Positions 50,798 to 62,431 of a DNA stretch of 63,156 nt are shown here, piece by piece. The stretch comes from an uncultured virus (IMG/VR IMGVR_UViG_3300046331_000190). Lineage: Duplodnaviria > Heunggongvirae > Uroviricota > Caudoviricetes. The position numbers were made by a program, and so were the translations under genes. Under the pieces are notes generated by a model that saw only the letters and a program-made list of their open reading frames with translations, was not told the DNA's origin and made no database searches. Position 1 is the stretch's first letter, and each line of letters opens with the position of its first letter. The stretch is taken from IMG/VR virus record IMGVR_UViG_3300046331_000190; one strand, written 5' to 3'.

Positions 50798-51633
50798 TTC
50801 TTTTTCTTTTTAAACTTGGGTCTGAACTCTTGTAAGTAATCTAACAAAGCAACAACCTCATCTTTTAAATACGGCACTTCATACGCCGTAATCTCCTCAA
50901 CGATTGGATTACCTTCGTTGTCAAGTGCTGCAATTGGATATCCAAATCTGTCCTCTCCCGCTTTTTCAAACTTGATATGTCTTAGAGTTAACTTGCCAGG
51001 ATCAAGTTTTGGATTATGTCTTAGTATAATATAAAGATACAAAGATAATTGCAAAGCATAGTGATTAAAGTTACAATCATCAAGATGTGCCACTGGATAT
51101 TTCATCTTTTGAGATATCCCCTCCCAGTTTTTATAGGAGGCCATGTTTATTTCTTTGTTTGTCTTGTAGTCATCAATGTTTACTTTATTCATGATCACCT
51201 CTGTAAAGTCAGACTGTCCACAAATACCAAAAGATTTCAAGTAAACAAAGTGCTCTGGATAAACACCTTCTCCAAGTTTCTGAGATGGTGCATATTTCAA
51301 TCCATCAACAACAACTGGTGGATATACAGGAACTTCAACACCTTCTCTAACAATTGTATTCAACGAGCATAGATCTTCCTCACGTTGATTGTGATACCAT
51401 GTTCCTAAATCAGTTGCTCTCTTTGCTTCAGAAGACCATGCATTCAAGATCTCCTCTTCGCTCATCCCGTACCACTTTGATTTCTTGTTCTTTGCAGATT
51501 TTTGAGCTTGCTTTGGAGCATCAAAATCCTGTTTAAAGAATCCAATAAAACTAGTTGCACTGATCCAATCAATTTGTTCTTCTTCGCCAACAGACGAATA
51601 CTCGTGATTGTCTGCTTTAAATATTAACGCCAT
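50794..51633 (-). CDS. PD-(D/E)xK RecB-family exonuclease
   Basis: GT..H, PEH, GQSD, IDDYKT, HYALQLSLY motifs. Confidence 0.8.
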   Translation of the reverse strand: MALIFKADNHEYSSVGEEEQIDWISATSFIGFFKQDFDAPKQAQKSAKNKKSKWYGMSEEEILNAWSSEAKRATDLGTWYHNQREEDLCSLNTIVREGVEVPVYPPVVVDGLKYAPSQKLGEGVYPEHFVYLKSFGICGQSDFTEVIMNKVNIDDYKTNKEINMASYKNWEGISQKMKYPVAHLDDCNFNHYALQLSLYLYIILRHNPKLDPGKLTLRHIKFEKAGEDRFGYPIAALDNEGNPIVEEITAYEVPYLKDEVVALLDYLQEFRPKFKKKKK

Positions 51634-51985
51634 TATTTTGTTGGTCTAAACGTTCTCTTAATACTTGCTCTTCAGCGGGTGATAATACTGCTACCCATAG
51701 TGGATGTTCACCAATGTCTTTTAGGTAACAATCACATGCCATACAGCGTGTCTTTAGTTGTATATTACAGCCACATCCTCCACACGCTGGAGATCCTTTA
51801 ACAAAAGCCTTCTCTGAAGACCCATCTTTGTCATACAAACCACAGGTATTTGATTCACAAATACTTGCTCTCTCAATCGCTACTGCTTCAATATCATCCT
51901 GTTTGAATATATTGTTTACAATACCTTCCAAGATTTGACCCTTACTCTTCCATATCTTGAGTAGGTTCTCCCTGTTTATTCGCAT
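51617..51985 (-). CDS. Zn-binding Cys-rich hypothetical protein
   Basis: R..IC...C..CGGCGC...K..C..C.C..W. Confidence 0.6.
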   Translation of the reverse strand: MRINRENLLKIWKSKGQILEGIVNNIFKQDDIEAVAIERASICESNTCGLYDKDGSSEKAFVKGSPACGGCGCNIQLKTRCMACDCYLKDIGEHPLWVAVLSPAEEQVLRERLDQQNNGVNI

Positions 51986-52352
51986 ATGCTGTTTTCTTAT
52001 GGTTTTCAATAAACTCTTTTCTTGCCATCTCCTCCTCGTATTGTTTCTTTAACTGTAAAAGATCATAATACTTCTCTGCTGTCCTGTAAATATTCTGAGC
52101 TTTCTGGTCACCCTTCTGCTCATTCATTTCCTGAGCAGCCTGTTTCTTTGCAAGCTCCTTATCAATCAACCAGTGCTTTATGGTAAAGTCACCAAAGTTT
52201 TCAATATGAATCCTAACGTGCTTTAACCTTGATAAAGACTCTCTGGTAACAGACCAAAAATGATTACCAATATCAGCAATCATATCCTGGTTCAACTTCA
52301 AGTCATCTGCAACTTGATCGTATACGGTCTTAGGCTTCTTGGGACGGAGCAA
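51942..52352 (-). CDS. HU/IHF-like protein
   Basis: Two helices followed by RIHIENFGDFTIK (HU beta-arm-like). Confidence 0.5.
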   Translation of the reverse strand: MLRPKKPKTVYDQVADDLKLNQDMIADIGNHFWSVTRESLSRLKHVRIHIENFGDFTIKHWLIDKELAKKQAAQEMNEQKGDQKAQNIYRTAEKYYDLLQLKKQYEEEMARKEFIENHKKTAYANKQGEPTQDMEE

Positions 52353-52704
52353 CGGCTGCGAATTTATAGTCTAATAACACATTACCAGAAGAGAACACTT
52401 TCAAAGCTGGATTCAGAGCAATCTTTTTCTTTGCCTTTCCATCTTTTACAATCAAGTTCTTCTTCTCAGCCTTTGTCAACGCATTCCTTACCGTCTGTGC
52501 AGAAGAGAATATTCCACGTTCCGCACATCTTGTACAGAATACAGTCAACTCCTGTTCACCAGATAAAGCCAAAAACGTTAAGCAGTCCAAGTCTGACTCA
52601 GACACTGCCACCTTCTCAAGATAGCAGTAAGTTAGAATCTGAAACTTTATAGCGTCCCAGTATTCTAACTTTGCTTTTCTTTCAACAAGATTAAACTGAG
52701 CCAT
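52330..52704 (-). CDS. Putative winged-HTH protein
   Basis: SAQTVRNALTKAEKKNLIVK..I.LNP. Confidence 0.5.
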   Translation of the reverse strand: MAQFNLVERKAKLEYWDAIKFQILTYCYLEKVAVSESDLDCLTFLALSGEQELTVFCTRCAERGIFSSAQTVRNALTKAEKKNLIVKDGKAKKKIALNPALKVFSSGNVLLDYKFAAVAPSQEA

Positions 52705-52969
52705 CAGTTCTCTTTAACTTCTTTTCAAAGTTCTGTTGAATCGGAGCATTATCTTCCTCTTCAGATTCTTCATCCTCTTGAGGTGACATCATTTGTCCAA
52801 TAAAAGCAGTTGCTTGAATCTCTTCAGCCTTTGCCTTTATAAACAGTGTGTTTAACTCTTGCAACTTAACCTGCAATTCTTTTAACTCGATCTGATCATT
52901 ATAAAACTTGATCATCTCTTCTCTTGATGGAGCCTTTGACTCATCTTGTACTTCTTGTTCTACTGACAT
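52691..52969 (-). CDS. Hypothetical acidic coiled-coil protein
   Basis: 92 aa; AAACCAAC leader. Confidence 0.55.
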   Translation of the reverse strand: MSVEQEVQDESKAPSREEMIKFYNDQIELKELQVKLQELNTLFIKAKAEEIQATAFIGQMMSPQEDEESEEEDNAPIQQNFEKKLKRTDGSV

Positions 52970-52982
52970 ACTATTGTTGGTT

Positions 52983-53264
52983 TTAAAGTTTTGCTTTTGT
53001 TTCCTTTTTTACTCGGGCTTTCCCCCTCCATACAGAGAGCATAATGTGAAACGGTGTGTCAATAACAAACACATCCGTATTATCCATATACACAGTCGTT
53101 GCATAATACTCATCATTCGTCTTTTCAGGAGACTTACGCTTTATTGCAATGATTCCATCCGTCTCAATCGCAGCATCAACCCACACCCCTGGATCAGAAA
53201 TCCCCAAGTCCTCAAGCTGCTCTTCTTGCATTGTATTGCACAGTACTTTACACTCGTGTATCAT
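52983..53264 (-). CDS. Hypothetical protein (first gene of the leftward unit)
   Basis: 93 aa; promoter-like ACTATCTTAT at 53277-53286. Confidence 0.55.
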   Translation of the reverse strand: MIHECKVLCNTMQEEQLEDLGISDPGVWVDAAIETDGIIAIKRKSPEKTNDEYYATTVYMDNTDVFVIDTPFHIMLSVWRGKARVKKETKAKL

Positions 53265-53389
53265 ATCGCCCTAATAATAAGATAGTTAATCGGTTTAAAC
53301 TTACCAAATTTAACTAGACCGCCACTAATATGCAAGTATTTCAGCAAGTTTTTTAATAACGCTGTTTAGAGCAAACTGAGGGGGTACAG

Positions 53390-53459
53390 TCATAGCTGTG
53401 AGACCCTATTATAATAAGTACTATATATACTATTATATTAACCTCTCATAGCTGTGAGA
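53390..53459. repeat. Two 14-bp direct repeats (TCATAGCTGTGAGA) flanking an AT-rich spacer
   Basis: Exact copies at 53390-53403 and 53446-53459, near-palindromic, at the strand switch. Confidence 0.85.
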
Positions 53460-53548
53460 TAACCCCCCCCATTTATCTTATACTAAACTACCCCCGGCTA
53501 TTGGCACCAAGTATGTTACGCTTCATGTGGGGGACATGATATGTTGAT

Positions 53549-53625
53549 CCCCTACTCTGTTTTGAGCAGGTGTATCCCCCTATTCAATGTTTGGGTTTTA
53601 TTTCCCTTACTTTGTTTAGAGCAGG
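53549..53625. repeat. Imperfect 22-bp direct repeat CCCYTACTYTGTTTWGAGCAGG
   Basis: 53549-53570 and 53604-53625 (19/22 identical); core TGTTTAGAGCA also at 53363-53373. Confidence 0.7.
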
Positions 53626-53671
53626 ATAATCTTGACTCGTTAATCATTTATTCATCTAACCGTTTACTAAC

Positions 53672-53974
53672 ATGAACAAGATTAAATTCACCGTAGCAAA
53701 AGTATCAGCTATCACAGAAAAAGGCAACTACATCCATACTATCAAGACTGAAGGCAAGTCCGTTAAGTTTGCGGGTATGGATATGAAAGGTGCAGGTCAG
53801 ACTTATTTCGTCGCTTTACAACAACCAATCGCGGTTGACGGTAAAGGTCACGAGACTGATTTGGACTTGTTCGATATCGTTGAACGTAAAGCTATGTTGG
53901 AGTATACCGACGAAGCAACGGGCGACGTACTCGAGCGTGAGTATGCTTTCAAATGGTTATTCCCGAAACGTTAA
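53672..53974 (+). CDS. Hypothetical protein (first rightward gene; beta-rich, possibly OB-fold)
   Basis: 100-aa ORF with strong codon bias. Confidence 0.6.
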   Translation: MNKIKFTVAKVSAITEKGNYIHTIKTEGKSVKFAGMDMKGAGQTYFVALQQPIAVDGKGHETDLDLFDIVERKAMLEYTDEATGDVLEREYAFKWLFPKR

Positions 53975-54126
53975 TCGGGGGTAACCATCAAGTAGGAACA
54001 CCTACGGGAGAGGCTTCGCGCCTTTCCCAAAAAGGTGTCTCATCTACTCAGCGCTCTCACTTCAAATAGGTGTCTTATCAGCTCAGCGTCTACTCAGTCT
54101 CTCGTGTCTCTATCTTGTTATGTACT

Positions 54127-54200
54127 CATTCTTAGAATAGTACAACAGTTTTGAGTATAATCCCTGGAGATTCTCTGACACATTCTTAGAATAGTACAAC
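54127..54200. repeat. Two exact 20-bp direct repeats CATTCTTAGAATAGTACAAC
   Basis: 54127-54146 and 54181-54200; 34-bp spacer; internal palindrome ATTCT-T-AGAAT. Confidence 0.85.
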
Positions 54201-54431
54201 GATGTGTGTGTTAGTTTGAGTGTGGGTGACAGTATATACGGTAAATGATTAACTTGTCTTATGTGCTTTAAACACACATATGAGGTGGATCAAATGGCTA
54301 TACGTCATTAGGCTTGTTCTTTCTCAGTCTTGTACACTTGACCTAGTATCTTATTACTATCTCTTATAGTGTATTACTTATTAGTTGCTTCTTCTTCTTT
54401 TAGATAACCCGAATCTTATGTTGTTCGCAAT

Positions 54432-54554
54432 CCAGGATCAAGACCTGGCATCACAGGCAGGTGTGGTGTTAAATATTCTAAGAGATCCTGCTAGTCTCTT
54501 TGTTTCACCTGGCAGAGTGACGGTAGCCCAATATGTGTGGCTACCAAATCTGCT
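54432..54554 (+). ncRNA. Candidate structured RNA: five hairpins, a kissing loop and a pseudoknot
   Basis: Loop GGCAGG (54456-61) is complementary to loop CCTGCT (54487-92); loop GGCAGA (54511-16) is complementary to TCTGCT (54549-54). Confidence 0.55.
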
Positions 54555-54569
54555 TTAATCTTTTATCAA

Positions 54570-54794
54570 ATGATTGTATTTAATACGCTTAAGAAAGCTC
54601 AGCACTATGTGAAGCACAAGACAGCTCAGTACAGGTCGTATCTTAACAAGTCACGTTACTACAACGACGAAGAGTTTATGTCTTACCAAATCAGTGAGAA
54701 CATGGTTCTTTGTGTGTCTGGTTGGCAATGTGGCTGCGGTTGTGACCGTGGAAGTACAAGTGCTACTGTTATTGGTAGAATCAAATCAGTTTAA
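54570..54794 (+). CDS. Hypothetical protein with CGCGC motif
   Basis: ATG at 54570; 74 aa. Confidence 0.55.
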   Translation: MIVFNTLKKAQHYVKHKTAQYRSYLNKSRYYNDEEFMSYQISENMVLCVSGWQCGCGCDRGSTSATVIGRIKSV

Positions 54795-54813
54795 TAACCA
54801 ATCCAACATACAC

Positions 54814-55134
54814 ATGAAAACAAACCAATCAACCAACATTAAAGACTGTATATTAAAAGGTCTTAGTCATTCGTTAGTTAAAGATAAAACCATTTTATGT
54901 ATGACAACCTCAATAGGTTCAAACTCAAAAAGAGAATATGATCTAAAAAGAGGATATATTACTGAAGAGTTTGATAAATATCTTCAAGATGTAAACTTTA
55001 CTATATATCCTAGCTCTTTAACTGGTATCATTATTTGGTACCAAGATGGTTCTTATTCTTGGGCTGGTGATGAAGAAGACCATATTACATGGGAACATCA
55101 TCGTAGACCTAATCCAGATTCATTTAATCTTTAA
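54814..55134 (+). CDS. Hypothetical protein
   Basis: ATG at 54814 after an A/C-rich leader; G.IIWY.DGSYS..WEHH..P. Confidence 0.6.
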   Translation: MKTNQSTNIKDCILKGLSHSLVKDKTILCMTTSIGSNSKREYDLKRGYITEEFDKYLQDVNFTIYPSSLTGIIIWYQDGSYSWAGDEEDHITWEHHRRPNPDSFNL

Positions 55135-55272
55135 TCTTTTACACACAGAAACTCTATTGTATTACTAAAGATGACAAAAGAAAAACAGCTAAGTAAAATA
55201 AACAACAAAGACCAAGCTTACAAGCAGTGGTTGCTAAAAGAATATAATCAATAATCCATAACTCTTATTATC

Positions 55273-55488
55273 ATGATTACTCCAGAATTAATTAAGAAAG
55301 CTCAAGAAGAGCGTAAGCAAGCACTAAAAAGAGGTGCTATCATTATCATGGCTTTAGGTACAGCTGTGTCATTGTTTGGATTCGTTAGAATCTTTACTGT
55401 TGGTAATCTTGCCGACCATGTAGTGTTCCTGTTTGGTGGTGTTGTTACCTGTATTGGTATATACTTTGAAACTCTAAACAATCGTTAA
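55273..55488 (+). CDS. Small membrane protein (2 TM)
   Basis: Two hydrophobic segments. Confidence 0.6.
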   Translation: MITPELIKKAQEERKQALKRGAIIIMALGTAVSLFGFVRIFTVGNLADHVVFLFGGVVTCIGIYFETLNNR

Positions 55489-55489
55489 C

Positions 55490-55768
55490 ATGTTGACATT
55501 CAAAGACTTAGAGTTTAGCGATGCCTTTGGTGGTGAAGCTTTTGGACTACGTGCTTATGTTGCTTTTCCAAACGGTTATGGTATATCTGTTGTCATTGGT
55601 CCATATACATATGGTGGTCCAGAAGGATTATATGAAGCAGCTGTCTTAGACAGAAATGGTTCTTTAACCTATGATACACCAGTAACTGATGATGTTATCG
55701 GTCATTTAACTGAAGAAGGAGTAACTGATGTTATGCGTCAGATCCAAGAGTTAAGTCCAGCCGAGTAA
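55490..55768 (+). CDS. Conserved phage protein
   Basis: FPNGYGISV..TYGG..GLYE.AVL..YDTPVTDDVIGHLT pattern, common in phage early regions. Confidence 0.7.
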   Translation: MLTFKDLEFSDAFGGEAFGLRAYVAFPNGYGISVVIGPYTYGGPEGLYEAAVLDRNGSLTYDTPVTDDVIGHLTEEGVTDVMRQIQELSPAE

Positions 55769-55831
55769 GAACCTATCCTAAGCATGATATAAAAAGGCTT
55801 TTTAGAATGTTTAATCCCTTAATCTACAACA

Positions 55832-56047
55832 ATGTCAAGACGTAAAAAAATCTTATTGATGCTAACGGTATTGTTTGCATCATACTCTGTTATCGCAATG
55901 GTATACGTAAACGTATGCTACAACTCAACACCTGGTATCCAAGAAGGTGAGCCTAGTCAGAATCTGTTTCAGATTATATTAGGTTCTGCTATAGTCTCAG
56001 CTTTGATTGGCAAAGTTACGTTCTGTAAATACGATGATGCTTACTAG
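55832..56047 (+). CDS. Small membrane protein (2 TM)
   Basis: Basic N-terminus plus two hydrophobic helices. Confidence 0.55.
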   Translation: MSRRKKILLMLTVLFASYSVIAMVYVNVCYNSTPGIQEGEPSQNLFQIILGSAIVSALIGKVTFCKYDDAY

Positions 56048-56048
56048 T

Positions 56049-56231
56049 ATGAAGGTATTAACAGGTGCTCCGAAACGAGGTGCTTTTTATCATGTTGTAT
56101 GGACAGCAAATAAAAAGACAATAGCTCGTGTGACAAACGTCTATCCTGATGGGTTAGTCGCTGTTGCAAATCCAAAGACGGGTGTCTTATGGAATACATT
56201 AGTTAAATGGTCAGACTTAAGATTAGTGTAA
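56049..56231 (+). CDS. Hypothetical SH3/KOW-like small protein
   Basis: 60 aa from ATG at 56049, coupled to both neighbours. Confidence 0.5.
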   Translation: MKVLTGAPKRGAFYHVVWTANKKTIARVTNVYPDGLVAVANPKTGVLWNTLVKWSDLRLV

Positions 56232-58116: not shown

Positions 58117-58148
58117 AAAGGGGCTAGTTATGCTGGTCCCTTTCTTTT
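58117..58148 (+). terminator. Intrinsic terminator
   Basis: AAAGGGGCTAG-TTATG-CTGGTCCCTTT-CTTTT. Confidence 0.7.
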
Positions 58149-58202: not shown

Positions 58203-58544
58203 ATGAAAGTAACAACAAAAAAAGTGAAGAAGAATCTTCCAACTGAAAGAATCGAAAGATGGTTCAGACGCGGCATGCCAACAAGCATGATTGCAAAAAA
58301 CTTAAACGTTGATTATAACGCAGTATACTACGAGATTGCTCGTATCAAAAAGCGTGACAACGAAGCGTACAAAGACGCACAAAAGATTACTGAGGAGTAC
58401 ATCGAACAAGTTGGTGTTGATACAACAATTGTTGATATACCTGTAAAGGTTAACTTCTCAATGAAGATATACGGTATCTCCATCAAGGTTACTCGTGTAC
58501 CATCTGAGATTATCTTTGATGAGGATTATATCGAAATCAACTAA
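58203..58544 (+). CDS. HTH-domain protein
   Basis: GMPTSMIAKNLNVDYNAVYYEI. Confidence 0.6.
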   Translation: MKVTTKKVKKNLPTERIERWFRRGMPTSMIAKNLNVDYNAVYYEIARIKKRDNEAYKDAQKITEEYIEQVGVDTTIVDIPVKVNFSMKIYGISIKVTRVPSEIIFDEDYIEIN

Positions 58545-59000
58545 ATGATGGAGATGTCAGAACACAAAGTGTTTAACTTCTTTACAGGAGAAGATGGCCC
58601 GTCACGTATTATTGTAAAGACGGGTAGTTATAGTGATGGATCAGCAAAGATTGAGATTGTCAATCTGCAGAATCAAGTGTTTATCGAAGCAACTGCATGC
58701 TGTAACAACTTTGGATTAGACTCAAATGATGCTATTATAGCGTCAGATGGGTCTGTTCCAGGGTTAATGAGTTTCTTAGAATCTCATAACATAGTAAGAC
58801 AACAAGATGAGTACATAAACATCGAAGATGGAATGCATCCTGTTGTTAAACTATTACCTGAATCAGAGTGGATTACTGAGATAGAGAACGGCAAACTGTT
58901 TATTATAAACGAATTTACTATCTTTGCAAAAGACCCACATCAAGCTTTTCAACTGTATCTGTTTGCCCTTCAAGCAGATGCCCAAACTATTGAGTATTAA
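58545..59000 (+). CDS. Hypothetical protein (weak DUF4313-like)
   Basis: 151-aa ORF in operon. Confidence 0.5.
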   Translation: MMEMSEHKVFNFFTGEDGPSRIIVKTGSYSDGSAKIEIVNLQNQVFIEATACCNNFGLDSNDAIIASDGSVPGLMSFLESHNIVRQQDEYINIEDGMHPVVKLLPESEWITEIENGKLFIINEFTIFAKDPHQAFQLYLFALQADAQTIEY

Positions 59001-59001
59001 C

Positions 59002-59559
59002 ATGAGCTATATATTTAATCATGAAGATAAAGAGATGCACGTAGCATTCTGTATCGACCAAGAGACGGCAGATAAAATCATTGGCCGTATCATATTTGAG
59101 ACCTTAAAGTCTAACTGTATTGAGAAAGACTTTGAAGAGATTGGTGAAGAAGCACCAGCTAATCTAATGAAAAAGACTGCTGTACTAGAAACAGTACTTA
59201 AGTCTATTACATCAAAGCAAGAAGAGTTATTTGCAGCTGTCTTCTTCTTAGTATGGCATGAAAAGACAAACTATGTCTGGAGAAAGCAAGGTGAAGTTAA
59301 ATCAAAACTTAGTAGTTCAGCCGTAATGGATAAGCTAAAAGAAGGTGCATCTGAAGTATTTTCTCATATCTCAGAATCTGTGTTACAAAACAAGATTGAT
59401 GAGTTTGCAAAAGAAAAAATGGCTGAGTTTAAAGGCTATAACCGTATTGTAAAGCAAGTTATTAACTCTAACTATGACTTTGATTTGTTTTCTGCTATTA
59501 TTGATCATGACTTTGATTATGTATCTGATGTAGTTGATAAGGCAGTACAAGAGGTATAA
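59002..59559 (+). CDS. Hypothetical protein
   Basis: 185 aa from ATG at 59002. Confidence 0.55.
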   Translation: MSYIFNHEDKEMHVAFCIDQETADKIIGRIIFETLKSNCIEKDFEEIGEEAPANLMKKTAVLETVLKSITSKQEELFAAVFFLVWHEKTNYVWRKQGEVKSKLSSSAVMDKLKEGASEVFSHISESVLQNKIDEFAKEKMAEFKGYNRIVKQVINSNYDFDLFSAIIDHDFDYVSDVVDKAVQEV

Positions 59560-59581
59560 GATATTTGTGTGAGAAAGAGGT

Positions 59582-59617
59582 AAGGGTTAGGTTGTGTAAA
59601 AGCAATCTAGCCCTTTT
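59582..59617 (+). terminator. Intrinsic terminator/hairpin
   Basis: AAGGGTTAGGTTGT-GTAAAA-GCAATCTAGCCCTT-TT. Confidence 0.6.
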
Positions 59618-59629
59618 AACCTAATTAGT

Positions 59630-59911
59630 ATGAGCAAGCAAAAAGGATTTGGTAAGTATCCACGATATGTAGCTGATGACCCAACACTTACTCATATTGA
59701 GAAAGCAATGGTTGGTATAATCGCTTGTTATACAAACGAACAGTTAGGCTACACATGGATATCTGTAAAAGAGTTATCTCTACGTCTTTGTTGCTCAGAT
59801 GCAACAACACAGAGATGTTTAAAATCGTTAAAAGAAAAAGGCGTCATAAGTCGTGACGGCTATCATGTTACAAAACAGGGTGCATCAAGAATTACCCGCT
59901 TAATAATCTAA
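59630..59911 (+). CDS. Winged HTH protein (HTH_36-like)
   Basis: D..LT..EK.M...I..Y....GY.W.S..EL..RL..S..T.QR.LK.L.EKG.I.R. Confidence 0.7.
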   Translation: MSKQKGFGKYPRYVADDPTLTHIEKAMVGIIACYTNEQLGYTWISVKELSLRLCCSDATTQRCLKSLKEKGVISRDGYHVTKQGASRITRLII

Positions 59912-59915
59912 AATC

Positions 59916-60224
59916 ATGGCAAAAAAACTTAACAGAGCTGTTGAACCAGCACCAAAAAGAGCTTACAACAAGAAACCAAAAGCTCCAGTTGAACAACAAC
60001 TAAAAGATGAATCAAAGTGCACAAACTGTGTACCTCTTGATATATTAAATGAGATATCATTACAGCATAATGCTGAATCAGCAAGACGTATTGCATATCA
60101 CTTAGAAAGAGTAAAAGAAACTACTGGTGAAACATTACCAGAAGACACTGCTTATGTCATTGCATTATCGCAGAGAGAGTTATTGTATAAGTTAAAAACT
60201 CATACAGCAGATAATATCTTATAA
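59916..60224 (+). CDS. Hypothetical protein
   Basis: 102 aa; basic N-terminus; CTNC. Confidence 0.55.
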   Translation: MAKKLNRAVEPAPKRAYNKKPKAPVEQQLKDESKCTNCVPLDILNEISLQHNAESARRIAYHLERVKETTGETLPEDTAYVIALSQRELLYKLKTHTADNIL

Positions 60225-60258
60225 AGGGTCCTTGCAAAAGATCTATATTTAAGATACA

Positions 60259-60345
60259 GAGAAGGTAGTATAGGGCATTACGAGTAACTACTGAACGAGA
60301 AATGATGTAGTATACTAGACATGGGTTCGATTCCCATACTTCTTG
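60259..60345 (+). ncRNA. tRNA-like RNA lacking a D-arm (GAC + T-arm as in the tmRNA tRNA-like domain)
   Basis: T-arm ATGGG-TTCGATT-CCCAT; acceptor GAGAAG/CTTCTT; helix TAGTATA/TATACTA. Confidence 0.5.
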
Positions 60346-60346
60346 C

Positions 60347-60532
60347 AAAACCAGTGATGACTGAGGTGCAACCCCTCGGTATATAAAATGCAAAAAGGTC
60401 TTGTTGAATCCGGAATAGTCATACAAGTCAGCAGAGAGTTACATATAAACAGGGAGTAATTAACCCATCGTGAAAATGTAACCACCAATGAAAGTTGGTT
60501 ATGATGTACAATGTGTACAATAAACTGGTTTT
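60347..60532 (+). ncRNA. Candidate 186-nt multibranched structured RNA
   Basis: Closing stem AAAACCAGT/ACTGGTTTT; hairpins ACTGAGG/CCTCGGT, GTTACAT/ATGTAAC, ACCAAT-GAAA-GTTGGT, GTACA/TGTAC. Confidence 0.55.
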
Positions 60533-60536
60533 ATTT

Positions 60537-60628
60537 AGCTAAGTAGAGTAAAAGTAACTCGTGGGTGAGTAATCCGATTATGTCGGAACCAAAAGACCAA
60601 GCAACAGGGGCAGTACCTGTCTTAGCTA
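60537..60628 (+). ncRNA. tRNA-like RNA with an extended, non-canonical anticodon arm
   Basis: Acceptor AGCTAAG/CTTAGCT; D-arm GAGT-AAAAGTA-ACTC; T-arm ACAGG-GGCAGTA-CCTGT; central TCCGA-TTATG-TCGGA. Confidence 0.6.
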
Positions 60629-60629
60629 C

Positions 60630-60730
60630 ATAAAGAGAGATGAGTGAAGCTGTGTTCGGACTCTAGATCAAAGGCAAAGGTTAGCCTCTAGTATAGCAGT
60701 AACCTCGAAAGACCCGAAGTCTCTCTTTAT
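60630..60730 (+). ncRNA. Candidate 101-nt double-pseudoknot RNA
   Basis: 11-bp closing stem ATAAAGAGAGA/TCTCTCTTTAT; AGGTTA/TAACCT and TTCGG/CCGAA pseudoknot pairings. Confidence 0.55.
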
Positions 60731-60812
60731 AGTATTAGTATACCTATAAGGTATACAATTGATTACTCTTTTAAGAAAGAGTCTGTTTAATCAGACAGAG
60801 ATAAAACTGATT

Positions 60813-60928
60813 TGTATGGTTTGCCGAGTGGGACTCGGGTGAAACTCAGTATGACTATCCATGATTGAGTGCACTCATGATTAGAAAAAGCAATACACAG
60901 TAATAGGGTTCGATGCCCTTCCATATAT
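60813..60928 (+). ncRNA. tRNA-like RNA (acceptor + T-arm, remodelled centre)
   Basis: TGTATGG/CCATATA; AGGG-TTCGATG-CCCT; CCGAGT/ACTCGG; palindrome TGAGTGCACTCA. Confidence 0.5.
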
Positions 60929-60931
60929 CTT

Positions 60932-61005
60932 GGACTTGTAGCTCATTTGGTTAGAGCAACTGACTCATAATCAGTAGGTAATAGGTTCGATCCCTATCTG
61001 GTCCA
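60932..61005 (+). tRNA. tRNA with CAT anticodon (Ile2- or elongator Met-type); no encoded CCA
   Basis: GGACTTG..CTGGTCCA; GCTC-ATTTGGTTA-GAGC; ACTGA-CTCATAA-TCAGT; ATAGG-TTCGATC-CCTAT. Confidence 0.9.
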
Positions 61006-61006
61006 C

Positions 61007-61144
61007 AATAGTAACTTCAAGATACAAGCTAGTCAGTGTAAAACGCTTGTAGAACGAGAGATGATAAACATAGTTTGCATATGGCCACGAGATGCGTCAT
61101 ACTGAGCCATTATCGCTAGTTGCATACTTGAACTCTCAACTATT
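61007..61144 (+). ncRNA. Candidate 138-nt structured RNA
   Basis: AATAGT/ACTATT, TTCAAG/CTTGAA, TACAAGC/GCTTGTA, ATGGC/GCCAT, GAGAG/CTCTC. Confidence 0.45.
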
Positions 61145-61149
61145 ACTCA

Positions 61150-61176
61150 ACCTGTATAAATCATACAGGTTTTTTT
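61150..61176 (+). terminator. Intrinsic terminator of the RNA array
   Basis: ACCTGTAT-AAATC-ATACAGGT-TTTTTT. Confidence 0.8.
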
Positions 61177-61207
61177 GTTTATTTCTCACACTTTAACAGT
61201 TTAAACT

Positions 61208-61402
61208 ATGGCTGAAGTAAAACCCAGAAACCCATTTGGGATCTCGTACAATCAATGGATAGCAAGATTGAACGAAGAAATCGTAAAAGATCAAACAAAG
61301 TTGGCAACAAAAAAGGATCATATCCCACTGTCACAAATCAACTCTCACTCACAATTAAAACTTAACAGAAAACATGTCAGAGAAAGTATTACGTCGAAAT
61401 AG
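61208..61402 (+). CDS. Hypothetical protein
   Basis: 64 aa; SYNQW motif. Confidence 0.5.
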   Translation: MAEVKPRNPFGISYNQWIARLNEEIVKDQTKLATKKDHIPLSQINSHSQLKLNRKHVRESITSK

Positions 61403-61769
61403 TCCAAAGTACAGCTTATTAGTATACATTGCTTTAACTGGCATGATGACAAACTTCATTGAAGAACACGTTATCCCAGATAAATCAATGAACAAGCAAA
61501 AGATTAAGCTTTTAACTAGTCAGTTGCATGCAGAGTTATTAAAAGTTGTTGATAACTTCTTCTTGAGAATTAAAAACGATGATGACTACGATAAGTTAGA
61601 GATAACTGAGCAGTTTCATATAGCTACTATTGCTATGGAGCACTTCTTTAGATTATCGTTGCAGATAGAAGATCTTGATGATATGAAGAAACAAGGTTTA
61701 GTTACGCAGTTGAATATCTTACTTGTATCTTATGGCCTAGAAACTATTGAAATCCCAGTTGGTATATGA
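61374..61769 (+). CDS. Hypothetical helical protein
   Basis: 131-aa ORF with ATGA overlap to the next gene. Confidence 0.55.
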   Translation: MSEKVLRRNSPKYSLLVYIALTGMMTNFIEEHVIPDKSMNKQKIKLLTSQLHAELLKVVDNFFLRIKNDDDYDKLEITEQFHIATIAMEHFFRLSLQIEDLDDMKKQGLVTQLNILLVSYGLETIEIPVGI

Positions 61770-62431
61770 AAAAACTAAAGCTTTTAAACTCAGTAGATAG
61801 TAAAGTATACTTTACTTCTGATACCCATTATGGGCATAAGAACATATGTAAAGGTGTAACATCATGGCAAGATGCAAATGACTCAACAAGAGACTTTAAA
61901 ACACTGGAAGATATGAATGACGCGCTTATCCATGGCATCAACTTACTTGTAAAACGACAAGATATACTTATTCATCTTGGAGACTGGTCTTTTGGGGGCT
62001 TTGAAAACATCAGAAAGTTTAGAGAAAGGATATGGTGCGAAAACATACATCTTGTTCTTGGTAATCATGACCATCATATTGAAAACAATCGCGAAGGTAT
62101 ACAAGATATCTTTACATCTGTTAGTGATATGCTTGAGATTGAGATAAACTATGTTGCTGGTGGTCAAGTAACTGCAAGCTATATGGTTCAAGCATGTCAT
62201 TATCCTATGATGTCTTGGAAAGATATGAACAAAGGAGCTATGCATCTTCATGGACATGTTCATTTACCAGGACATAATAAGCACGCAGGTGACGGGCGTA
62301 TCATGGATGTTGGCGTTGATGCAAATAGTATGCTTCCTGTTGCGTTTAGAGCTATTGCTATGATGCTAAAAAACAGAGAACCTATATCATCATTACCTTT
62401 TCCAGATCATCACTCAAAAAACATACGATGA
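61766..62431 (+). CDS. Calcineurin-like metallophosphoesterase
   Basis: SDTHYGH, HLGD, GNHD, CHYP, LHGHVH, DVGVD. Confidence 0.9.
   Translation: MKKLKLLNSVDSKVYFTSDTHYGHKNICKGVTSWQDANDSTRDFKTLEDMNDALIHGINLLVKRQDILIHLGDWSFGGFENIRKFRERIWCENIHLVLGNHDHHIENNREGIQDIFTSVSDMLEIEINYVAGGQVTASYMVQACHYPMMSWKDMNKGAMHLHGHVHLPGHNKHAGDGRIMDVGVDANSMLPVAFRAIAMMLKNREPISSLPFPDHHSKNIR

Follow-up and report, generated by a model that had tools for sequence, protein, structure and literature searches.

Introduction

RNAC and RNAD of phage T4 are stable small non-tRNA RNAs that are transcribed from the phage's tRNA cluster and whose role is unknown (PMC3014915). GOLLD and ROOL, RNAs of phages and prophages and likewise of unknown function, often lie near tRNA islands (PMC12286853), and in Bacteroidota phages the theta ribozymes, minimal ribozymes of the hepatitis delta virus (HDV)-like type, are found a few nucleotides from the 3′ end of CCA-less tRNAs (PMC10879173). 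The t-elements of plant mitochondria are non-canonical tRNA-like structures that are substrates of both RNase P and RNase Z (PMC1920247). Here we describe a row of separately folding RNAs at positions 60259–61176 (plus strand) of the 63,156-nt DNA of an uncultured virus (IMG/VR IMGVR_UViG_3300046331_000190; this whole stretch is called the window). The row consists of one real tRNA (tRNA-Met), three tRNA-shaped elements (t1, t2 and t3) and other folds, which include R186, PK101, a block of three hairpins and R138 (Table 1). Pfam searches of the window's proteins found the crAss major capsid, muzzle and both tail ring proteins, identifying a crAss-like phage, and all 24 listed sequencing runs that hold all or part of the stretch carry a freshwater metagenome label. 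The reading that we favour, with a probability of about 0.6, is that of a phage tRNA array in reduced form, whose tRNA-shaped elements would maintain RNase P and RNase Z processing of cargo RNAs.

The likeness of R186 and PK101 to T4 RNAC and RNAD is one of context, in that all are non-tRNA RNAs inside phage tRNA arrays. The host and the phage group are different, however, the present array has tRNA-shaped surrogates for most tRNAs, and R186 is common to many uncultured phages. R186 and PK101 are 3–8 times smaller than GOLLD and ROOL. A first-pass annotation of the sequence had drawn a parallel with these two RNAs; the genomic context agrees, but neither GOLLD (RF01998) nor ROOL matched the window at the gathering score or at E ≤ 10. 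Theta ribozymes occupy a similar place by tRNA 3′ ends, but PK101 and R186 differ from them in topology and match no ribozyme family. As in t-elements, the tRNA-shaped elements are non-canonical cloverleaves with a T arm, and their ends coincide with the ends of neighbouring RNAs. The t-element T-arm motif GGTTCRANYCC (PMC1920247) fits t1 and tRNA-Met and, at 10 of 11 positions, t3. However, t-elements flank organelle mRNAs, whereas the elements of the array flank structured non-coding RNAs of a phage, carry conserved inserts and are putative cleavage substrates. We conclude that the array belongs with the RNAs of phage tRNA regions, yet is a member of none of the described kinds (RNAC/RNAD, GOLLD/ROOL or theta ribozymes), RNAC and RNAD being set apart without a sequence comparison.

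Results

R186 as an RNA family in phage tRNA gene clusters

A first alignment of six R186 sequences, of three types, contained 47 predicted pairs, of which 12 were compensatory and none was broken. Covariance model R1 was built from these six sequences. Viral contigs were scanned for the exact 15-mer of the apical hairpin, which returned at least 120 stretches, and model R1 found full-length or nearly full-length R186 at at least 29 loci (29 of the 120 matches listed), with scores of 105–214 bits; two of the 29 were contigs already known. The alignment used for covariation was fitted to the model and held 31 sequences in 28 distinct rows. Among the 28 distinct sequences, pairing was present in 96.9% of cells, and both sides changed in 28 of the 47 pairs, compared with 4–7 when the partners were slid by 1–3 columns. 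On four of five measures, none of 500 shuffles matched the observed values. RNAalifold, applied separately to the same alignment, returned 40 pairs, with compensatory changes in 23. At several positions, G-U pairing is compatible with the plus strand only. Invariance of the GGG/CCC apical stem follows from its use as the seed of the search; the apical loop, also invariant, contains the palindrome UAAUUA.

No Rfam family matched R186, either in the window at E ≤ 10 or in five divergent members at E ≤ 0.5. Two 15-mers were found in no paper of the literature searched, and were absent from the searchable supplements of PMC10690425. Since three files of that paper lay outside the search, R186 may be among its 10,006 unnamed candidates. 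Likenesses to RNase P RNA, to a k-turn and to box C/D RNAs were judged by eye and dropped, with no match. In bacterial and archaeal genomes (185,579 species genomes), 12 pattern matches were obtained, none of which was a real R186. Two carriers are nearly complete phage genomes of 176 kb and 207 kb. Both are without the window's capsid protein, in a search that matched its positive control, the nearest genome record (G001, itself without the array region), which indicates that R186 is common to unrelated phages. Judged from these comparisons, R186 is a well-supported RNA family that Rfam lacks and that several phages have in common in their tRNA gene clusters.

The surroundings of R186 were compared across 29 distinct contexts among the matches listed. 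A T arm and acceptor 3′ strand end 0–3 nt before R186 in 24 of them; one further context has a 23-nt hairpin in between, and four have no upstream tRNA. ARAGORN, run on 16 loci, placed a tRNA end flush with R186 in eight (tRNA-Thr(UGU) in seven, tRNA-Glu in one) and a tRNA start, mostly of tRNA-Asp, 2–8 nt past it in 11, the typical order in the scanned loci being tRNA-Thr, R186, tRNA-Asp. In L125 (about 1246–1395), L117 and L135, the position flush against the 5′ end of R186 is taken not by a tRNA but by a tRNA-shaped RNA that carries about 100 nt of inserted sequence; Rfam misses the L125 element at E ≤ 0.5. This type of element combines a 7-bp acceptor stem with a canonical T arm that matches the one of t1 exactly, and the three phages also carry 4–11 normal tRNAs within stretches of 2.3–3.0 kb.

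Further features were observed beside R186. In three of the four contexts without an upstream tRNA (L092, L190 and L095), TATATTTG or TATCTTTG ends 3–4 nt before R186. Both resemble the −7 promoter box of Bacteroidota, a hint as to the phylum of the host and to transcription starting at the 5′ end of R186. Directly 3′ of R186, L133 (940–1033, minus strand) and L154 (1340–1432, minus strand) carry a conserved module of some 85 nt that is closed by a stem, as do L188, L191 and L207; it is a further uncatalogued RNA of such arrays. Between R186 and tRNA-Glu there is a conserved stretch of about 220 nt with two long hairpins in L164 (1588–1810), L092 (1578–1806), L190 and L186.

PK101, the hairpin block and R138

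Scanning with a 17-mer revealed PK101 in two more phages. In L213 its immediate upstream neighbour is a Leu-type tRNA-shaped element that contains an insert of about 90 nt; in L211 it stands in an ordinary array, flanked by tRNA-Asp and tRNA-Ser, and has an additional hairpin. The core was invariant in all nine sequences compared. The closing stem changed on both sides in seven of 12 pairs, a count to be set beside the 4–6 two-sided pairs that slides of ±2 also give, because the stem is a purine/pyrimidine tract. The two proposed pseudoknots can be drawn, with helices that are invariant or show one-sided changes, all compatible and without covariation. Covariance model R2 found no further PK101 in 99 loci, and a second PK101 pattern and a pattern for R138 gave chance matches only (L231, L235 and L239). 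By these sequence comparisons, PK101 is a second, rarer family with an invariant core.

In the arrays of other phages, R186 and PK101 lie flush with tRNA ends, which is the placement required if RNase P and RNase Z were to release them. The same placement could be read as self-processing, with PK101 or R186 a theta-like, self-cleaving ribozyme that trims the adjacent tRNA end. Both start 0–3 nt after a tRNA or tRNA-like 3′ end, which is the place of theta ribozymes (PMC10879173), and the invariant core of PK101 has possible nested pseudoknots. However, HDV-like, twister, hatchet, pistol and other ribozyme families gave no match in the window at E ≤ 10, nor in the five divergent R186 sequences at E ≤ 0.5. 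The terminal stem of PK101 joins its 5′ and 3′ ends, which is not the nested double-pseudoknot topology of HDV-like ribozymes, and in L006 PK101 follows an open reading frame (ORF). We regard self-cleavage by either RNA as very unlikely.

In the hairpin block, L006 has a different hairpin in place of the first, and homology resumes at 60756. R138 is 85–97% identical in seven relatives, and is non-coding, since a one-base indel separates relatives. It had been described as a structured RNA of 138 nt; conservation was found, but the fold gained no support, with a z-score of −0.43 and candidate helices that never vary. No homologs of R138 outside the lineage were found by nhmmer, blastn or pattern scan.

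One tRNA and three tRNA-shaped elements

The CAT tRNA annotated at first pass proved to be the sole tRNA that ARAGORN calls in the whole window. It does not encode CCA, and is 100% identical in L006 and L088. Only this tRNA has an anticodon stem with a 7-nt loop, and only it and t1 pass the gathering cut-off of the Rfam tRNA model. None of the three mimics is called by ARAGORN and none encodes CCA. Element t1 combines an acceptor stem and U8-A9 with a D arm containing GG and a canonical T arm. A 15-nt loop tops its extended anticodon stem, giving 22 nt where the Rfam model has five, and its T stem shows two compensatory pair differences in L002. Element t2 has an acceptor-like stem of 7–8 bp, U8-A9 and a 4-bp D-like stem, and no anticodon arm; the 5-bp stem at its T position is flush with the acceptor strand and carries the loop GGCAGUA, which is not a T-loop. 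Element t3 combines a 7-bp acceptor stem, a class-II-like D hairpin, an inserted hairpin domain of about 60 nt and a canonical T arm. Its acceptor pairing is kept through two-strand changes in L006, L001/L088 and L085/L087, and its insert hardly varies. Since that insert outdoes the acceptor stem in conservation, the mimics are probably not punctuation alone.

In all three mimics, an acceptor stem is set on a T arm and 0–4 nt separate the element from neighbouring RNAs. Loss of the normal anticodon arm, as claimed, was seen in each, other hairpins taking its place in t2 and t3. Retention of the acceptor stem and T arm was found for t1 and t3, but not in full for t2, in which the loop at the T position is not canonical. 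Synteny and one MAFFT alignment suggest t1 to be an insertion-bearing tRNA-Thr(UGU); the anticodon stem mispairs even after removing 16 nt, and this origin was kept as a lead only. When t1, t2, PK101, the hairpins, t3 and R138 were compared with all other loci by nhmmer and blastn, nothing was found except T arms, and a pattern scan for t3 returned the known lineage only. These searches suggest that the three mimics and R138 are confined to this lineage.

Several tRNA-shaped RNAs with intact acceptor and T halves, and a metallophosphoesterase gene 600 nt downstream, might speak for decoys that soak up host defence enzymes attacking tRNAs. Yet with no anticodon stem-loop, the mimics could not imitate the targets of anticodon nucleases, CCA is not encoded, and no defence or counter-defence gene was identified nearby. 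A decoy function would seem highly improbable.

Module borders and selection among relatives

Searches with the flanking proteins found the relatives L001 (identical to L086), L002, L004, L006, L085, L087 and L088. Differences among them fall at domain borders, indicating that the modules are real units of evolution. An insertion of 1.0–1.3 kb lies right after 60345 in L002, L087 and L088, and an RNA-library contig has an insertion or replacement that begins at the same point; in L002 the insertion takes the place of R186, and homology resumes at 60536. It holds an ORF of 294–295 aa (L002 3468–4352; L087 628–1515; L088 937–1824), which has no Pfam and no PHROG match, and then further tRNA-shaped elements. 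The element after the ORF has a constant acceptor stem and differs inside, with 70 nt and a 6-nt loop in L087 and L088, and a Leu-type D arm and a large insert in L002. The order in L006 is PK101, a tRNA-shaped element, R186, another tRNA-shaped element (Rfam tRNA, 39.2 bits) and the remainder; t2 is absent, and the 39.2-bit element holds its position. In L001 (4019–4096, equivalent to L086 2556–2632), tRNA-Met keeps its acceptor stem and T arm, with the D and anticodon arms replaced. This variant has a CUCAUAA loop on a 4-bp stem, is not called by ARAGORN and scores 26.2 bits with Rfam. In L085, t1 is a hybrid that scores 27.7 bits, below the cut-off: its 3′ end, from the 3′ strand of the T stem through the acceptor strand, comes from another element, a pattern that suggests recombination between two T arms and a crossover within the T stem.

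Exchanges of this kind raise the question of whether the chief importance of the tRNA-shaped elements lies at the DNA level, where they would be sites of recombination or insertion at the junctions of mobile cassettes. The ORF with its own tRNA-shaped element inserted exactly after t1, the T-stem crossover in L085, the changed module order in L006 and the constant acceptor stem of the post-ORF element are all in its favour. It leaves the RNA-level covariation in R186, the PK101 closing stem and the t3 acceptor stem unexplained, however, and is compatible with a reduced, processed tRNA array rather than an alternative to it. We regard cassette junctions by themselves as an unlikely explanation.

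Sequence identity was compared with that of third codon positions. Against L006, third codon positions of the flanking ORFs are 59–70% identical, while identity is 93% for PK101, 91.5% for t3, 90% for the hairpins, 85% for R138, 83% for R186 (with compensation) and 100% for tRNA-Met. In closer relatives, third codon positions of the upstream ORF are 80–90% identical, and t1 is 93–99% and t2 98–100% identical (five relatives each). The terminator is 94–100% identical in relatives. By this cross-relative comparison, the non-tRNA domains are real and selected, in agreement with the several novel RNAs originally proposed. Covariation, suggested at first pass as a check on each domain, was seen in R186, the PK101 closing stem and the t3 acceptor stem, but not in t2 or R138, in which the pairs and the candidate helices, respectively, do not vary.

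These values also bear on whether the array is decaying, with the mimics as outgoing tRNA pseudogenes and only the real tRNA, and perhaps R186, of importance. Just one of the four tRNA-shaped units decodes, the canonical tRNA-Met is lost in L001/L086, the hybrid t1 of L085 falls under the cut-off, and related phages have full arrays. On the other hand, the mimics are 93–100% identical among relatives, more so than third codon positions, and the same holds for t3 against L006. The t3 acceptor stem shows compensatory change, and t1 and t3 retain the T-loop consensus. Simple decay is an unlikely account of the locus.

Layout, transcription signals and neighbouring genes

Between 60225 and 61207, no ORF that lies wholly inside exceeds 57 aa, which bears out the first-pass statement that some 950 bp lack a credible ORF. 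A minus-strand frame of 89 aa (60157–60426) overlaps the start of this ORF-poor region, which is flanked by plus-strand ORFs of 102 aa upstream (59916–60224) and 64 aa downstream (61208–61402). The region had also been described as tiled by self-closing domains. The minimum free energy (MFE) structure closes every one of them near the coordinates first proposed, and the borders are agreed by Rfam tRNA matches, ARAGORN, the R186 covariance model and the terminator-like site. Folding energy decides nothing, because the z-scores are modest (−0.4 to −3.9) and the real tRNA itself reaches just −0.9. The region is not one known family, this alternative having been raised at the outset: at the gathering score, Rfam gave two tRNA matches and nothing else, and in 60100–61300 no family other than tRNA had a credible match at E ≤ 10. 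A YrlA (RF02553) match spanning t3 and tRNA-Met scored 16.7 bits against a cut-off of 69. In a distant blastn comparison of the region with 50,697 phage records, matches arose via tRNA-Met alone.

Table 1. Features of the array, with folding-energy z-scores
Feature	Coordinates	Strand	z-score	Description
t1	60259..60345	+	−1.0	Rfam tRNA, 36.3 bits (cut-off 29); not called by ARAGORN
R186	60346..60533	+	−2.4	188-nt multi-branch RNA with closing stem and five stem-loops; covariance model R1, 222 bits
t2	60537..60628	+	−1.96	cloverleaf-like, MFE and centroid structures the same; no Rfam tRNA (RF00005) match at E ≤ 10
PK101	60630..60730	+	−1.5	101 nt; 12-bp closing stem, core of about 84 nt able to form two pseudoknots
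Three hairpins	60738..60799	+	−3.86	first variable, second and third conserved; 0 of 200 shuffles as stable
t3	60813..60928	+	−1.6	tRNA-shaped by fold; no Rfam tRNA (RF00005) match at E ≤ 10
tRNA-Met (CAT)	60932..61006	+	−0.9	ARAGORN; Rfam tRNA, 67.2 bits at 60932–61005
R138	61007..61144	+	−0.43	conserved 138 nt; 6-bp closing stem, internal structure unsupported
Intrinsic terminator	61149..61176	+		9-bp stem and 5-nt loop (61149–61171), then T run

The terminator proposed for the array end was recovered as a terminator-like site with a T run. The preceding site of this type on the plus strand is at 58117–58143, and because none occurs between 58143 and 61149, the array may be the tail of a small-gene operon (58203–60224). 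The promoter claimed upstream of the array, AATATCTTAT, was not supported. The sequence coincides with the 3′ terminus of the upstream ORF, and enrichment is not clear, with 21 matches of this type against 12.9 ± 3.6 expected, a number reached by 2 of 100 shuffles. Sites of the sigma-70 type numbered 31, with 29.1 expected. The pattern TTTG-N17-23-TANNTTTG, which we take to be of the Bacteroidota type, gave two matches against 3.2 expected, none near the array. Metatranscriptome contigs from four runs in four studies cover parts of the array; they show neither RNA ends nor transcription, and uncovered parts carry no information. One RNA-library contig of 344 nt corresponds to 60264–60607 with a single difference, and another of 5163 nt bridges the flanking genes.

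Elsewhere in the window, a 4.5-kb region without an ORF of at least 150 aa (51633–56207) lies between leftward structural and rightward small-gene blocks. The metallophosphoesterase gene downstream of the array is at 61766–62431 (PHROG 547; Pfam Metallophos, marginal). Homologs are present in L035, L075 and L077, 1–2 kb downstream of arrays with 4–12 tRNAs.

Discussion

Read as a reduced tRNA array, the locus would belong to a freshwater crAss-like phage that has one decoding tRNA left (Met-CAU), and would be kept because of the cargo RNAs that it expresses: R186, PK101, the hairpin block and R138. Decoding tRNAs would have been lost in the lineage, and tRNA-shaped frames with acceptor stem and T arm kept around the cargo. 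Transcription would run rightward and end at the terminator. Every tRNA-shaped element would be cut by host RNase P at its 5′ side and by RNase Z past its discriminator base, so that the cargo RNAs would be set free, each with a terminal stem that locks its ends. Modules may be shuffled between phages by recombination at the T-arm and acceptor sequences that the elements have in common. Because of their conserved inserts, the tRNA-shaped elements probably double as cutting signals and as stable RNAs built on a tRNA frame, and the constant association of the cargo with tRNA arrays points to a role in translation or tRNA biology during infection. The first-pass annotation had interpreted the mimics as processing punctuation in one transcript and/or as decoys, an interpretation that is partly supported.

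Several observations weigh against a reduced, processed array. The pairs of t2 do not vary among relatives, leaving this element with neither a canonical T-loop nor covariation, and R138 has neither thermodynamic nor covariation support. Processing of the tRNA type at the 5′ end is not obligatory, since R186 has no upstream tRNA in four of the 29 listed contexts, and PK101 in L006 is preceded by an ORF, not by a tRNA-shaped element. Single elements appear replaceable, because the inside of tRNA-Met is replaced in L001/L086 and the t1 acceptor stem is mismatched in L085. Mosaic recombination blurs the comparison with synonymous sites, the direction of which is consistent. Finally, the RNA-library evidence consists of contigs, and DNA carry-over is possible.

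A wider reading, which we put forward tentatively and regard as doubtful as a whole, is that freshwater Bacteroidota phages run a modular RNA expression platform. If this were so, cargo RNAs and domains grafted into tRNA frames would be matured by host tRNA-processing enzymes, and recombination at T-arm and acceptor sequences common to unrelated phages would shuffle the modules among them. R186 would represent a functional class of RNA not described before, with translation or tRNA metabolism as its target, and the palindrome in its invariant apical loop suggests that it may work in dimeric or oligomeric form. PK101 might perhaps represent a novel fold that is catalytic or binds a ligand.

Phage tRNA clusters have been known to contain RNAs other than tRNAs ever since T4, the roles of these RNAs being as yet unexplained. 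New here are the R186 family, found in a crAss-like phage and in unrelated phages of 176–207 kb, and the rarer PK101 family. The locus also offers a natural experiment, in that one lineage is without nearly all decoding tRNAs yet has tRNA-shaped neighbours beside R186 and PK101. That most decoding tRNAs were lost and these neighbours kept argues that selection preserves the cargo RNAs together with their tRNA-type maturation.

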